This document shows positions 12,737 to 21,083 of a stretch of 64,000 nt of DNA, piece after piece. The position numbers and the translations under genes were made by a program. Under the pieces are notes generated by a model, which searched no databases, was not told the DNA's origin, and saw only the letters and a program-made list of their open reading frames with translations. Every line of letters starts with the position of its first letter. Within the stretch, counting starts at the first letter, position 1. Source of the DNA: Patellaria atrata CBS 101060 (lineage: Eukaryota); the NCBI GenBank assembly GCA_010093705.1, contig MU006096.1:1076004-1140003 (forward strand), given 5' to 3'.

Positions 12737-14336
12737 AGTACAAAGTGAAATTCCCAATGAGAAGAGCTGCGTGCGTTTAGATGGAGCTTCGTGATGTAAG
12801 GGTAATTGATATTTATGGATTACAGTCTAGGTCTAAATTAGCGTTTGCACTTGACAGATTGAACGCCCTTTTTTAAAGTAATAGTGATATAATTACTGAT
12901 CAGCGGCGTTGTAAACACACTTACATGAATCTTGACTGCTTGGCAAATCGGAAAGATTTCAGACGCTCATGTCCAGACGAGCTTGTTTTAACGACAGAAG
13001 AACCCACGAAGGAGGATCTTCTGTAGATATTACTTGCATGAGATGGTAAGCGACTTACTACACCTCTTTCTCCGAACCCGACGGATTATAAAGATTAGCC
13101 CATGACGGGCAATTTCAGACCGTAGGTCATAGATGACGTATACATGGTATTATGTTCTTGTCTATAAGAATACACACCAGGTACGAATATCACTTGGTTT
13201 GCTTGGAAAGCTGTACAACAATCTTTTCAACCTGTCAGCCACCATCAAACATGGGCCCAAAGAGACCGCGGCTATAGACGATGAGTCGCGCAACGGAGAT
13301 GTCGAAAAGAGGGGGACACTATGGAGTCCCGGCAGTGCAGGCAAACCTATTCGGGTACTGCTATGCTAGCCGGTCATCCGCTTATGGTATCGGCATATTC
13401 ATGATCGTTTGACCAAATGAACTGCTGTACATTTAAGTTGAGACTCTGAAAAACTCTGCGGTGTTTGCACAGTTGAGTGTGGGATGATGTGGGCTGCATT
13501 TGAAGTTGGACGGACGTTCATGGGGTCGGACCAGGCTCCGGTTAGTCTCCGACCACCTGATTTTGGTGAATACAAAGGTACTTGTACTGTACAGTACAAA
13601 CAGAAGTCTAGCACTCTTATCTATGGAGAGGTAAGTATGTGGATTGGTTCATTCTTAATTATTCCTCCCGACATGTTTGTCCGAATGAAAACGGACGTTG
13701 ACTGATAACAGTGAAATTTTCGATGTGAATTGGACAGAGAAATAGGAGGTAGCATCAAATATCACACTTTCTGCACCCCAGGCATACATAGCACATGTGC
13801 CTCTATTACTACTCATAATTCGTTTCTCCCGTGTCCCTCCTTCCAATTGGATTGTTACATTCGAAGACGCGCAAACATTCAGTCTGCGAGCGGGACCACC
13901 AGGACGCGGATTCAATAAGATATCACGTAATCGGTTGGTGGACCTACTTTGAAAATGCAGATGGAAACACTAAGAATCAATGTGGATCTATGAGTTGCCC
14001 ATATGACTTTTTATTCTCGGTACGATCTTTCGAATTTTCCCATCGGAGTTGTCAATGGAATGGTACTGGTTGTTCAAGAAGGTCTAGAAAGACCGAAGAG
14101 GATCGAGACAGCTCGGACAGGAAGCTATCGAAGAGATTTACATGCAAAAACATGCATTTCACTGGAACGGATCAGTCTAGTGTATACCATTTATTTGTAT
14201 TGCTTTTGTTTCCTTGAATTCTACGTTAGTGGCATCATTACAACGAATTATCACGCCATACTACCGAAAGAACCTTATCTTGCGGCGATCCCCTTCATCG
14301 AGACCTTTTCGATTGTTGGAGCGCTCGGATTGAGAT

Positions 14337-15100
14337 CTAAGCTTTAGGCTTAGAGAAGTCCGTATAGCCCTGCCCTTTGACGTGTATTGCTGCCCAGGGA
14401 GCCTTCGATTTCCCTGTAGCTAGGTCCAGGTAAAAATCTGCCGCCGCATCACCACTAACAGCTTGTCCTACAGATTTTCCTTCGGCGGTCCTTTCATCTG
14501 TATAGTAAAAGCTAACGGAAACAATGTTAATCAAGTGGCCTACTTTAAGCTTTCGTGGTTGAAAACTTACCGGTATCCTTTTTCTGAGAAAGCAGCATCC
14601 GCAGCTCCAATCCAATGCGCACTTGCGGACTTTCCTATTCCCAAAGCCAGAAAATATCCTACAGGGATGATTGTGGTATTCAATATATTGCCCGTGTATA
14701 TGAACACTTTTCTTCCCTCTTTAGGAAGCTCCTCGAACCCCTTAATGGTCTCTTGAGCAGCAACATAGGGGCTCCACGTATTAACCTCAATGCTCTTCTT
14801 CATCTCTTCGACAGGAAGCGATAAAATGTTATCAGCGTCTGGTATCTGGACAGCGCTAGCAGCATTATACACAACGACGCTAGGATTACCCAGCGCAGCT
14901 TTCACCTTCCTGAACACCTCAGGGATACTGGTGGAGTCGGAAAAGTCAGTCTTCACGCCGAAATAACCGTCTGGCGTAGGAGTGTCCGAATAACTTCGAG
15001 ATGCAACCGCAACGCTATAGCCTTCACTATTGAAGCGACGAGCAACCGCGGTACCGATATTGGCGCCGGCACCGAGAATCAAAGCAATTGGTTTGGACAT
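14337..15100 (-). CDS. Short-chain dehydrogenase/reductase (atypical), 2 exons
   Basis: Rossmann motif LILGAGANIG, VVVYNA, FIYTGN and LGIGKSA. One GT-AG intron (about 14570-14512) joins to FYYTDER...YTDFSKPKA*. Confidence 0.85.
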
Positions 15101-16156
15101 TCTTACGTCTCCCTATTAGAAGTAAAAGTTTTCTTGTTCGGAGTAAAAGCTCGTCGATGAAAAGATCATGAGCACATAGGGGAAAGGGTGAGACTTCAAA
15201 GTTGGTGATAGAGTACATCTCCATACTTCCCTTGGCCGTGCTTTATACTCCACCTCGCTCCTTCCATACTCTCTCAACATAGAGTCCCATTCATTCAATG
15301 TCATTACTCAATGCCGCCCTGATAATCACCCCCCCTGACATGGAAGCACCTAACGTCCCAGGATTGTACTGTACCATACGCCACGAACTTCAGTAGACAG
15401 GCATACTACTAACATAATTTAGGATAAGTGTACTGTACCGTCCACACAAATCACTTACTAATACATATATTCTGCGCATGTCGATGACAAACTGATCGCA
15501 CTCTCAGTCGATTTTATGGCGGCACGCCCAAGATAGTGTCAGCATGCAGCAAGGACATAACTCATGCTGCGAATCGAACTACCTCAGTATTGCGTATTCT
15601 GCTTCCGTAATTCGTGGTTAGTTGACGGAATTACTGCGTTCTGTTGCGTATGGTCGTCGAGCCTGGAGGTGTACTCACCAACAGTAAGGTAGGTCTTGTC
15701 TTGGTAAGCAACCCCTTAGATACGCCTCTATGACCTAATAATTCAGATCCGAACATTTCCATGGCATCCCATACATCAGTGAAATTCAGGTATGAGACTC
15801 ATATATCGCATGCATCTAAGCCTAGCACCCTTGTACCCTGGAACAAACGCCCTGTTATTTCGAAACGATAGCAAGATGGAGTTCCGATGAAGGTGGACCT
15901 GTTCGATCAGCAGGCTTCCTTAACCACCACTTTGACCCGGGATTCCTTTGCATATAACACGCCAGGTAGAGAACGTAGTAGATATGACCAGTTGTAGACA
16001 TGTATTGATTGAAGAAGCTGAGGTGTGACGTTTGCCTGTTCCCTAGCCCGTCCACAACAGTGTGCGGCCCCACCGCGGGGTTCAAAACTCTCGCCAAGAA
16101 CAAACATCTTGTCAGCGAAACAATCCGAGAGTGGAATACGCAGTGCAGATAAAGAA

Positions 16157-17219
16157 ATGGTCTACTACTTCACAAGCAATGTGGTTACGCCGTCAGCCTT
16201 CATATATGTAGGCAAGGACAAAGTGGAAAGTACGCATCCTACATGATAATGAAGTAGTATTGTGGGCGAAACGAGAGCTGAAGCTGACTCCTACATCTCA
16301 TAGATGAGGAACTGATCAAATATGGGTGGGACGAGGATATATGGTAAGGTGTCCTGCATAGTACGCATCTTGACCTTCTAGATACTCCTGCTGATCCCGG
16401 TCAGGGTGAGTTCATGTTTAAGTCTACCCGAAGCCTTGAATACCAATATGAGCCGGACTTAGTTCCACGTCGACAATCTCTCCAGCGCGCACATCTATGT
16501 TCGCCTACGAGAAGGAGAGAAATGGGATAAAATACCCACAGACTTGTTAACCGACTGTGCCCAGCTGACCAAAGCAAATTCAATTGAGGGTCTGATATTC
16601 AGTATCTCATGTCTTTGCGAGTGCTGATAGCCTCCTTATAGGGAATAAGAAGGACAACATTACAGTGATATACACGCCTTGGTCTAACCTCAAGAAGGAT
16701 GGAGGTATGGCCGTAGGCCAGGTTGGATTTAAAGATCCTAAACTTGTAAGACTTATCAACTCTTTCTCCGCTCATTCCACCACGACGGTAGCGCTTTCGA
16801 TGTTCAAGATTTTGTATCGAAATGTAATCCGGTCCCAATATTCTAATTTTTGGAATCTAGGTTAAGAAGATCCATGTCACTAAGCGTGAGAATCCAATCG
16901 TTAATCGTCTGAACAAGACGAAGGTTGAGAAGTTCCCCAATCTTATGCAGGAAAGGGATGATCGGCAAAAGGAACTGAGGATCAAGGATAGGGAAATCCA
17001 GAGGCTCAAGGTTCGTTTTGAACAATATTATCAGATCTCCACACCCTCCGCTAATATGCACTCCTTATGAAGCAAAAAGAAGATGCGAGGATTGCAAAGG
17101 AGAGAAAGGAGCTCGCATGGCAACGTGATCATGCATACGATGATATTTTCTCTGAGGATGCTCTCGCAGCTTCGAGTAACCAGGATCGAGATGCAAACTG
17201 GGAAGATGACTTCATGTGA
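16157..17219 (+). CDS. JLP2: CCDC25/Jlp2 (NFACT-R, DUF814) protein, 7 exons including a 1-nt exon
   Basis: Spliced: MVYYFTS...[37 protein letters not shown]...[42 protein letters not shown]...NRLNKTK...WEDDFM*. Confidence 0.93.
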
Positions 17220-17309
17220 ACGAGAATACCCCTGGATATGGTTCTGGGGCTATATGGTCTCAACAGCACGGTTGTCGGAACATTCAGCTATTGCTTTCAT
17301 AGGACTGTC

Positions 17310-17756
17310 TCAATATAAGCACATGCCCATGCTTTCATTGAGCATTCGTAAGGTGTGGTCGAAGTGGTCGTACGCAGTGCGGTCTATCTTGAACTGATGT
17401 TCTCTTGCACTAATATTCCTGGATTAGCTTTCTGTAACGTAACGAAACAGACAGGAAAAGACGTACGCGAGATCCGCTGGTTTTGAAGGGCGTCTGCGAT
17501 GTCGATGCCATAGAACATTCATGAAGTTCTTGAGAATCTTGTGCTCTAGTCCCCTTTCTCTTGATGCATATTGGAGGAACTCGATAGTCCTATCGATCTT
17601 TCCCTGGTCGAATTGGGAAAGGTCACCATCGCGGAAGTGATGGCGAATTCTGTCGCGGATGATGTACCGCGCCGGTACCGCAAACCGAACGGCTCTGAGG
17701 GCGTGGCGATAAAGGTGCCTATACGCGTGAATAACTTCGGCCTGATGTAGCGACAT
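17310..17756 (-). CDS. Small LYR-like (DUF1763-type) protein, probably mitochondrial, 2 exons
   Basis: IHAYRHLYRHALRAVRF...IRDRIR..F, GLEHKILKN. After a GTACGT...TAG intron it ends AYDHFDHTLRMLNESMGMCLY*. Confidence 0.75.
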
Positions 17757-18115
17757 CAGATGAAGTGAAAACTGATTAGCTTCCTTACGGGAGGCTTCAG
17801 TTGGGGTAAGAGCCGCAAGGTACCTTACTAAGTATCACATTACGTAAGCTCGCTAAAGTAAAGCTCGGTGGCTCTATCCGCGCAACTACCTCACCTCTCG
17901 CCCGACTTGTTTCCCCCCTTCGACTTCACATCGTCAACGTACTTTTCGACATCAACTCGTGTCTAGAAGTGATTTTGACGGATCTTGTAGCTTCGCGCGG
18001 ATATCTGTCCCATATTTGTGGTCTGCTAAGCGCTCAAGCCGAAGGTCACGTCCACGCTGATATCAGGGAACTTTTGCTTCTGACCGTGACGGCATGGAAG
18101 CATGACAGCAACATC

Positions 18116-21083
18116 ATGACCCGTGTACAGAATCGCGCAGCTAATGCGCACAGCAAGAAAACATCAACTGCACTAACTAACAGGAAAAAGAAGCCTTATA
18201 AGATTGTGTTCGAATCCGTAACCCAGGAAAAGAAGAAGTTGCGCTCTGCTGTTCGTACTACTAGCTGTTTGGAAGTAATTTTTACTAAGATCGCGTAATA
18301 GGTTTCTTACAATGCACAAGCTCCTCTTGGATATACTTTCGTTCCTGCTGGGACTCCGGATTTGACTGAATATTGCAAGGAGCTATGTAGAACTCGAGGA
18401 AAGGAAGTGCATATTGTTTCGGTATGTCGATTTATTTCATGTTTCCCTATAAACTTACATTTTCGTAGGCAGCACCCAAAAATCGAGCACACAACAATCC
18501 AGGGAGGATATCGCATCATATTCATCGTGTTGGGCACCATTTTCCTAGTGGCATCGTTGACAAAGCTTGTGACTGGTTAGGTTACACCAGGAAAAATGGG
18601 ATATTTACTAAACACCTCGATGTTGGCATCAATTCACATTTTGCTCGATCACTTGCAAAGCACAAGAAACAATTAGGAAAAGATCCGTCGGAGACTACAG
18701 ATGAGGAAATTCGAGCTGCCATCAAGGATTTATTTCCAAAAATCCCCGATAGAGATGTTACCTCTATTTTGAACCATGCGTTTCGACAGGTTCGTTTCCG
18801 TAACATTGATATTATTGTTGCATATCTAATTTGTTTGAGCACAGGGTACCAAACGCGTCGGAAACGCAAAGGAACTAACCCTACCCAGACGCATCCAGTT
18901 GGCCGTTCTCGCCCATATCCGCCATGTCTATACTGACTATGATAAAGTACTCAAGCAGTCAGAGTGGATGGATGCAAGGCGTCATGTCGAGCCAGCTTGT
19001 CTTAATCAATTGCTAAAATGGCGGGGTGAAGACGAATCAGGCCCTACTGAGCTCGAAGATATCTTTCGTGAAACTATTATCATTGATGATAGTGATGATG
19101 AAGATTCTGAAAACCCTATTGCTGATGCATCAGACAGTGGTATTGAACGAGCACCTAGCGTTGAAATAATCTCAGAGCGTGCAAACGCTCGCGATCTTCT
19201 TACAAACGATTTGAATAACGTCGACTGGATTGACGCAGACAGTACTCAGCATGTTCCAAATCGAGCATATTTCGTCCGGAGTAAACCAAAGGTTAAACTG
19301 GTCCCAATTAACCTTCAACCTAGGGATTTACCGCTACGCGAACGACAATACATCCCAGAGAGTCCATTACGCCGCACAACCTATGATGCTCATCTGGGCA
19401 TTCGCACGGAAATGGTACCTTCAACAGCAGATTATGCCGCGGGGCGCAGTTTCCATTTTTCCAGTAACTCGGATAGCATGTACGAGTACCAAACTTTAGT
19501 CCTAAACACAACTGACAAGTCAACTTCTGATGAATATAGACGCCCATATTCGACCTCAAGTGGAACTGTGATTAATAATCAGCCACCGAACTCACACTTC
19601 GTTGAATGGAACGGAAAGCTTTATGAATCTGTGAGTAGCTGGATTCCTACCGAGGTCAGATGGGCTTAAAATCTCAAACCGAGCTAAAATTTTGGATACA
19701 CTGACTAACCTTTTGTAGGAGAAATACGTACACCGAGATCCATCACGAGTCTTGGAACGCAGGGAGACCAGACTCGAGAATCCATATCTGTTCCAAAGTC
19801 ATGTACTAACCAACCAGGGATCACAAAATACCTCCTCAAGATATATCGAATCTGAAAGGCGTCCAGTTGCTTTCCAGGAAAGTTATCCCTCAGCTCTTCG
19901 GGTATTCCAACACGCTGACGAGCGCGATATTGCTATGCCTTCTATTGAACATGATCATGATCGATTATCATTTCCAAGCAATTCGGATAAGACACTAACT
20001 CCACGTCAACATTATGGTAGGCCAGGTTTCGAACACTGCACAGGCACGTCTAAAGTGCACTTCCCGGAAAAACGCAAATCATTACCACTACCGCCAGTCT
20101 CTAATTTCAGTAACGACTTGACCGATAAACGAGCGAAGCAAGACTCGCAAATCGTAGGCGAAGACAGATTCATCCAACAATATTCGGGACAGGCCTTTGG
20201 GTTTCGGCGGACATTTCAACCTGGTAGGAGAATTACTCCACCTAACACAAGGCCTTTGGAGATCGTGGATCTCACCCATAGTGCCGAGAAGCCAAAATCT
20301 ACTGGGATTTGGCCTTATGACTGCTCTTTATCTTCACTTTCTTCGCCACAAGACCGATATAATGTGAGTGAATTTCAACAAGCAAGCATGAATGCAAATA
20401 TGCCACGTCAAGGCGCCTGTGGTTCTACTTCTTCTCGAACTCATTTCGATCGATCTGATCAGGGGAGTCAGCGTACCGAAACGGTAAGAATTGATGGGCA
20501 GCGTGAGTATAAGTCTCAAGTACCACCGCGAGTGCTCGATAATTCTTTCTCTACGCTTTCAGAAAAAGGTCATACAAGCGCTCAAGGGTATGCGCCACAA
20601 CACTTTCCTGCAACACATCAAGTCCAGGGTGAGCTACTTCGTGCTCCCGATATTCAAACTCAGCATTCCTACTTTCTTCCTTCTAATTCACAATTCTTTT
20701 CCTTAATTAAACCTTCCAATACGTCATCTTATTCATCTCCTCATCGTCCTCTACCCGTCAAGCGTAGTTCGGACCAAGAGTACGGAGACGTGGGACGTCG
20801 TTTTGTGGAGAATGATCTGCATCAACAGTCTGCTTTTCAGTTCAATCGAGGTGTGAGTTCGCATGCTTCTTTGAATGGATACTCAATGGAGGAAAGAGGT
20901 GGTCATAGGGACCTATCTGGTTCTATGGTTATGCCTTCTACTGTCGAAGGTGATCGGCATGGTCATCATACGCTTGAGGTTGTGCGGGATGTCCATAACC
21001 GGTCTCTACCGCCGGCTTCTGGAAATTATCATGATGCGATGGATATTGACGGTTATGGCCGTCGCTTGTACAAAGCAGCATAG
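18116..21083 (+). CDS. DUF2293-domain protein with long low-complexity C-terminus, multi-exon
   Basis: Spliced: PLGYTFVPAGTPDLTEYCKELCR, HRVGHHFP, AIKDLFPKIP...HAFRQGTKRVG...RRIQLAVLAHIRHVYTDYD...LLKWRGE. At least 4 GT-AG introns link ORFs 17969, 18899 and 19752. Confidence 0.8.

Follow-up and report, generated by a model that had tools for sequence, protein, structure and literature searches.

A probable one-nucleotide exon between two back-to-back introns in the CCDC25/DUF814 gene of Patellaria atrata

Exons of a single nucleotide (nt) have already been described, and the case presented here adds a further one. Arabidopsis APC11 contains a constitutive 1-nt exon that was demonstrated with reporters, and the identity of the exonic nucleotide did not matter for its splicing, as its authors report (Guo & Liu 2015, PMC4674806). 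In Fusarium, a 1-nt exon in CYP621A, lying within AGGGT and documented by SRA junction reads, is called by its authors the second example of a 1-nt exon and the first in a fungus (Nelson & Syed 2026, PMC12940212), and a long-read annotation of Coprinopsis cinerea lists 13 such exons spread over 13 genes (PMC12230235). Stwintrons, by comparison, are nested introns whose alternative [D1,2]/[A2,3] form has been put forward as a source of 1-nt intron shifts (Fekete et al. 2017, PMC5587772). Here we analyze a 64,000-nt stretch of the genome of Patellaria atrata CBS 101060 (contig MU006096.1, positions 1,076,004 to 1,140,003; the whole stretch is referred to below as the window). It holds a CCDC25/Jlp2-type gene of the NFACT-R_1 (DUF814) family, located on the + strand at 16157-17219 with its coding sequence in seven pieces. 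One of these pieces, the lone G at 16405, is very probably a genuine constitutive exon between two back-to-back introns, a reading supported by comparative evidence from orthologous loci and by the match to a public protein of the same species. Among the papers listed by full-text searches, supplements aside, none links CCDC25/DUF814 to a 1-nt exon.

As in Fusarium CYP621A, a lone G stands between a canonical acceptor and a canonical donor, inside a conserved protein motif and with short fungal introns on both sides; in both cases the exon phases fit only with the G, and annotation pipelines overlook it. The genes differ, however, and the G is the middle base of a Gly codon in CYP621A but the third base of a Trp codon here. 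The Fusarium exon is reported from one genus and its close relatives and has SRA junction reads, whereas the loci described below are nearest to four classes and the Patellaria CCDC25 exon is deduced from DNA and protein comparison. With APC11 our locus shares a 1-nt exon between two GT-AG introns, for which intron definition and removal of one intron after the other were argued as well; in that plant gene the identity of the nucleotide was reported to be irrelevant to splicing, while here a G is obligatory for the Trp codon. C. cinerea likewise has recurrent 1-nt exons in fungal genes, whose omission breaks gene models, although it is a basidiomycete. Stwintrons resemble the present case in having two short U2 introns within one Pezizomycotina intervening sequence, in their consecutive removal, and in the occurrence of related species with introns 1 nt apart or with only one of the two. 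A stwintron, however, has its internal intron placed within a splice signal of the external intron, and nothing of the combined sequence remains in the mRNA; the two Patellaria introns lie side by side without overlap, and 1 nt is kept. With loci nearest to Patellaria, Penicillium, Wilcoxina and Podospora, the CCDC25 case would be the most widely distributed 1-nt exon.

Recursive splicing uses ratchet points, zero-length exons at which AG is directly followed by GT, within very long introns and with no nucleotide left behind. The arrangement in Patellaria is similar in that an acceptor is directly followed by a donor and removal would be stepwise, but it differs in that 1 nt is kept in the mRNA and both introns are about as short as fungal introns get, the intervening sequence totaling 119 nt.

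Exon 2 (16304-16343) ends in GAT ATA TG, the TG being the first two bases of the codon for Trp38. Intron A (16344-16404, 61 nt) begins with the donor GTAAGG and ends with the acceptor CAG; its branch site, CTGAT, lies at 16391-16395, with the A at 16394 placed 10 nt before the 3' end. The single-nucleotide exon, G16405, is the third base of the Trp38 codon (TGG). Intron B (16406-16462, 57 nt) opens with the donor GTGAGT at 16406-16411 and closes with the acceptor TAG, and the acceptor of intron A, the exon and the donor of intron B run together as CAG, G and GTGAGT at 16402-16411. Exon 3 (16463-16589) begins TTC CAC GTC GAC and encodes the NFACT-R_1 core. When G16405 is kept, the coding sequence is open over 642 nt and yields a protein of 213 amino acids (aa) that reads GWDEDIW and then the FHVDNLSS stretch; when 16344-16462 is taken out as one GT-AG intron, the frame is lost and a stop is met. 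Measured against the conserved protein, exons 2 and 3 are thus exactly one nucleotide short of a common frame. An initial annotation, made from the DNA letters, had proposed this layout, with TG ending at 16343, introns of 61 and 57 nt, the lone G16405 and TTC resuming at 16463, and the sequence reads exactly so. It had also held that a single intron across the span breaks the frame, with which our recomputed translation agrees, and that the Trp and the frame need G16405; only the G-containing model is an open 213-aa NFACT-R_1 protein.

The full product aligns with Pfam PF05670 (NFACT-R_1) from residue 1 to 112 on positions 1-112 of the 112-position profile (E = 1.7e-33, 115.9 bits; cut-off 29.8), and exon 3 alone matches the same family (E = 1.7e-9). 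A protein search with exon 3 alone gave 860 relatives, of which the best 120 were taken. The best match, P0001, is KAF2838840.1, a DUF814-domain-containing protein of Patellaria atrata CBS 101060, and it equals the 1-nt-exon model over 213/213 residues; the Trp is therefore already part of the protein given by the deposited annotation. Public sources use the names CCDC25 and DUF814 for relatives, and JLP2 we take to be a further name for the gene family.

We enumerated the splice solutions of the region by combining every GT or GC donor (14) with every AG acceptor (8). Just two single-intron and two two-intron solutions were open. Both single-intron solutions take an AG inside exon 3 and lose the conserved FHVDNLSS; both two-intron solutions include G16405, and one alone retains GWDEDIW. 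The sole enumerated solution that retains the conserved motif is the one with G16405 as a 1-nt exon. The initial annotation had named two observations that would speak against it, namely, a mature mRNA spliced in frame at other sites without G16405 and raw reads showing a base missing at an outer junction. On the first, the in-frame canonical sites that dispense with G16405 in the DNA delete FHVDNLSS. As for the second, a search for sequencing runs gave two runs of one sample, both containing every word sampled from the window; their Logan contigs, one each, agree with positions 13000-21000 of the window letter for letter, without indels or joints and with word depths of 316 and 453, although the two runs are DNA and possibly the window's own source data, hence not independent.

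Orthologous loci bear on these questions more broadly. Metagenome contigs were scanned with an alignment of 21 orthologues, and 80 of 347 confirmed loci were read. The twin layout, TG-GT..AG-G-GT..AG-TTY, is present in 19 of the 80 (18 complete, and L026 cut inside intron A), intron B alone (TGG-GT..AG-TTC, 59-61 nt) in 5 (L042, L043, L074, L078 and L080), and contiguous Trp and Phe codons in 55 (52 by script, with L050, L052 and L067 added by tblastn); L057 is cut before the junction site. No single intron starting after TG, the arrangement expected of intron A alone, was seen among the 80 loci. Two related loci among the 52, L047 and L053, have no intron at the Trp codon; their intron separates a Glu codon from an Asp codon a few bases upstream, ~60-70 nt before the FHVD codons.

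The 18 complete twin loci and the window together contain 14 distinct intervening sequences, among which L017/L068 and L027/L075 are the only like pairs, leaving 12 independent sequences with the window included. Intron A measures 49-90 nt and intron B 52-163 nt, and the total lengths fall into all three classes modulo 3. One regular expression finds a branch-site-like motif in intron A of 13/14 and in intron B of 10/14 distinct sequences, the window's intron B being among the four without. In a shuffle test performed for each sequence, an internal AGGGT with at least 40 nt on either side arose in 0.4-5.6% of shuffles, as opposed to 12/12 independent orthologous sequences (product, 2.9e-22). 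On this comparison a chance origin of the internal AG-G-GT is excluded. In the 13 distinct twin loci other than the window, inclusion of the G restores xW-FH(V/A)D in every case and its omission breaks the frame in every case. Splice signals that are kept in otherwise unrelated sequence are expected of two real introns, not of a single odd intron or an assembly error. Conservation of AG-G-GT across orthologous loci was a check proposed along with the initial annotation, and the 12 independent sequences all have it.

The same mRNA would result if a single 118-nt intron with noncanonical ends, either GT..TA (16344-16461) or TA..AG (16345-16462), were removed with G16405 as an intronic base, and this is how mapping programs usually draw such junctions. 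We regard this explanation as very improbable. We know of no spliceosome class that uses GT-TA or TA-AG intron ends, and a single intron would leave unexplained both the internal AG-G-GT with its donor-like hexamer and preceding branch-site-like motif in 12/12 independent sequences and an open reading frame (ORF) of a relative, P0220 (see below), from which only intron B is missing. Another explanation would be an assembly error or a pseudogene, with a base missing at the exon border of one ordinary intron or with a broken gene. A homopolymer miscall would indeed produce a one-base frame problem. However, the Logan contigs of both runs match the window over 8 kb at word depths above 300 (possibly on the same data), the same frame problem and internal AG-G-GT recur in 13 other distinct loci from different samples, and the remaining ORF is intact and conserved. 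An assembly error at the junction is unlikely, and this explanation as a whole, damaged gene included, can hardly be entertained.

Public gene models carry the marks of the same junction. We classified 350 proteins, which were chosen by similarity, are rich in Eurotiales and Pezizomycetes and are not a random sample; 222 of them, with a true N-terminus and at least 190 aa, formed the full-length set. Of these 222, 114 read xW-FHxD correctly, whereas 108 are aberrant exactly at the Trp/Phe junction. In 33 of the aberrant models xW is missing, as if the GT of the Val codon had served as donor; another 13 have xC-AH without WFHVDNLSS, which fits joining of donor A to an AG inside exon 3, a solution that our enumeration also returned for the window; 25 have xW and extra residues and run into intron B; 10 have xC and extra residues; and 27 fall into other classes, including a Pseudogymnoascus destructans model in the G-skipped frame. 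These error types are those that a 1-nt exon would cause. Conflicting models exist for single species: Aspergillus flavus/oryzae is represented by proteins of 183, 205, 219, 220 and 224 aa and A. parasiticus by proteins of 211 and 213 aa, and A. fumigatus and Tuber spp. likewise have several conflicting public models each. The locus is a ready test case for annotation software.

ORFs and contigs of relatives provide hints at the transcript level. L003, a 1007-nt contig, contains an intron-free ORF of 213 aa in which TGG is directly followed by TTT; it matches 203 of the 204 residues of the Tuber melanosporum model P0252 and differs from it at the junction only. P0097, a Logan ORF found in 17 contigs, is the same as A. 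fumigatus models at its two ends. Across the junction it reads DVW-FHVD, unlike the genome-based A. fumigatus models, which have intron-derived residues ahead of FHVD. Three of those models (P0087, P0228 and P0230) also carry a 10-residue insert after ANSIE that P0097 lacks, so a second intron of the A. fumigatus gene is mis-modeled as well. P0097 continues beyond the stop with W, as if the ORF caller had read TGA as Trp. It might be argued that the main transcript skips the G and that the protein is made by frameshifting or editing, or not at all. We find this scarcely credible: nothing speaks for it beyond the missing RNA data for this organism. Against it, L003 and P0097 read W directly followed by FHxD, Trp38 is invariant in the 21-sequence orthologue alignment (whose members were themselves picked for a correct junction), and Trp is also present in 3/3 distant intron-free loci with FHAD or FHTD, which could not match the W-containing search pattern.

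Two further ORFs may capture partly spliced forms. P0220, a Logan ORF, agrees with A. flavus models in every one of the 175 residues of its tail, while its head matches residues 39-49 of the A. flavus model P0213, where they lie upstream of the junction; the head is followed by Arg and then by FHVD. Other A. flavus models have CDQ directly before FHVD. On the simplest reading, the head of P0220 stems from the 3' end of intron A, Arg is encoded by AG + G, and intron B has been excised, which would make it a transcript with B removed and A retained. We considered whether models with R before FHVD might come from a gene with intron A alone and rejected this for A. flavus, whose genome also gives CDQ before FHVD; given that variant, the Arg codon most plausibly combines the AG of acceptor A with the G, intron B having been spliced out behind it. 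A gene with intron B alone was rejected for A. fumigatus: its protein models fit except for P0230, in which, judging from the proteins, the acceptor position would need an AG. P0251, a JGI ORF identical to L003 over 175 residues, has 22 other residues before FHADNL and may represent the opposite intermediate, with intron A removed and B retained; at the level of a codon-by-codon guess, its first codons fit the end of exon 2, the G and the start of intron B. When seven cDNA-like loci (L001, L003, L038, L048, L050, L052 and L067) were compared with 14 twin loci by blastn, no pair exceeded 88% identity, and hence no cDNA and genomic copy of one organism are among them. A search for an RNA-derived ORF of the Penicillium-like locus L032 gave no exact match, the best full-length hit being 91% identical and one 111-aa fragment 97% identical.

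Very probably, the pre-mRNA carries two complete, independently defined U2-type introns, with acceptor A and donor B one G apart, and removal of both joins TG, G and TTC, rebuilding Trp38 with Phe39 next. With an acceptor and a donor 1 nt apart, there is hardly room for two spliceosomes at once. Each intron would be recognized by intron definition and one would be removed after the other, since U1 on donor B and the factors recognizing acceptor A would overlap. Whichever intron left first, the remaining one would be an ordinary intron, and no fixed order would be required. Were donor A joined to acceptor B, the G would be lost within the 119 nt removed, and the message would be frameshifted and end prematurely. 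The initial annotation had related the arrangement to stwintron-type splicing, which does not hold: no splice signal of either intron is broken up by the other, each already has its full GT..AG ends before any splicing, and the G stays. Nor does the first excision need to rebuild an exon end for the second donor, as had been suggested, because the GT of donor B and its downstream bases are present from the start. The proposed order, A and then B, is not supported: P0220, on the reading given above, carries the 3' end of intron A with B removed, which suggests that either intron B can go first or intron A can be retained. The locus offers a natural setting in which to study how two spliceosomes cope with splice sites separated by 1 nt, and in which order.

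Several points weigh against a 1-nt exon in Patellaria CCDC25 or soften the evidence for it. Only two runs of the organism were found, both giving DNA-like contigs, with no RNA read. The junction of P0001 could owe its correctness to homology and not to transcripts. A weak branch site in the second intron had already been remarked on, and the window's intron B indeed has no strict (CTRAY-type) match by regular expression; TTGAA at 16436-16440 is a candidate. One of the two scan patterns, WFHVDNLS, hits only loci or cDNAs without an intron at the site, and since it favors intron-less loci, the 19/5/55 proportions are not natural frequencies. Taxon labels of metagenome loci denote the nearest named protein only. 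For the relatives' ORFs and contigs, an RNA origin is deduced from the absence of introns, and the genomic AG-G-GT of Aspergillus and Tuber is deduced from protein models and not from DNA.

It is conceivable that the layout is kept for regulation, such that the balance between two-step splicing and G skipping sets the level of functional mRNA and the skipped form is degraded by nonsense-mediated decay (NMD). The initial annotation was right that skipping the G causes a frameshift: an early stop follows in the window, and the frame is broken in 13/13 other twin loci, 3 of which visibly run into an early stop. The persistence of the layout near Penicillium, Wilcoxina, Podospora and Patellaria also speaks for regulation. 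We nevertheless consider a regulatory role rather unlikely. The site is contiguous in 55/80 loci and intron A alone is gone in 5/80, with no other visible change to the gene, and so many losses of this kind argue against an indispensable role. The skipped isoform is a prediction from sequence. No conservation beyond the splice signals was found among the twin sequences. An Rfam scan of 16000-17400 at E <= 1 returned nothing in 16344-16462, with two weak matches elsewhere in the gene that are far below gathering scores, and the predicted RNA fold of 16334-16472 has z = 0.23, with no special structure. Were regulation to operate after all, the twin layout would exert level control on a protein related to ribosome quality control.

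Read as DNA, the layout extends by nearest match over four classes, namely, Dothideomycetes, Eurotiomycetes, Sordariomycetes and Pezizomycetes. In its last exon, L032 shares 91% identity with Penicillium cinerascens, and L012 is ~82% identical to Podospora/Cladorrhinum. For L056, whose type is represented by three loci on contigs of 28-181 kb, the last exon matches Wilcoxina mikolae at 95% and Trichophaea at 92% identity, with Tuber, Morchella and Pyronema next; by these identities, L056 is a Pezizomycete. A protein labeled as coming from the basidiomycete Lyophyllum atratum, P0237, is 86% identical to the L056 last exon and falls amid Wilcoxina, Trichophaea and Sphaerosporella, which suggests that this record is contaminated or mislabeled.

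In a quick single-gene tree built from the residues downstream of the junction (93 rows; weakly resolved, with 31 of 90 inner branches open), twin loci are scattered over the whole tree. The five loci with intron B alone share a single clade (support, 99) with the cDNA-like contig L001, which looks like loss of intron A alone, and intron-less loci cluster near Cladosporium, Zasmidium, Myriangium, Ascochyta and Erysiphe. Because the same unusual layout is found near four classes, one of them early diverging, common ancestry followed by losses is the simplest account. The layout is probably old within Pezizomycotina, having been lost fully in some lineages and cut down to intron B in one clade. 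A bolder version, which we put forward as doubtful, would have the layout descend from the common ancestor of Pezizomycotina, as by far the oldest and most widely conserved 1-nt exon known, and be kept as a control by unproductive splicing and NMD, with piecemeal loss shifting intron positions and phases. If that were true, piecemeal loss of both introns or of A only would be a natural route to one-nucleotide differences in intron position and phase between lineages.

The remainder of the gene is organized as follows. Exon 1 (16157-16229) runs from the ATG to a phase-1 boundary, and its translation is the N-terminus of P0001. Intron 1 (16230-16303, 74 nt, GTACGC..TAG) has a CTGAC branch site, and an intron at this position is also found in genomic orthologous loci. 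Downstream of exon 3 follow an intron at 16590-16641, an exon at 16642-16745, an intron at 16746-16860, an exon at 16861-17010, and an intron at 17011-17072 that precedes the last exon (17073-17219, stop included), all on the + strand. On the minus strand, a convergent neighboring ORF of 136 aa lies at 17427-17834; it has a weak match to Complex1_LYR (E = 4.3e-4, 20.6 bits), under the cut-off of 24.8.

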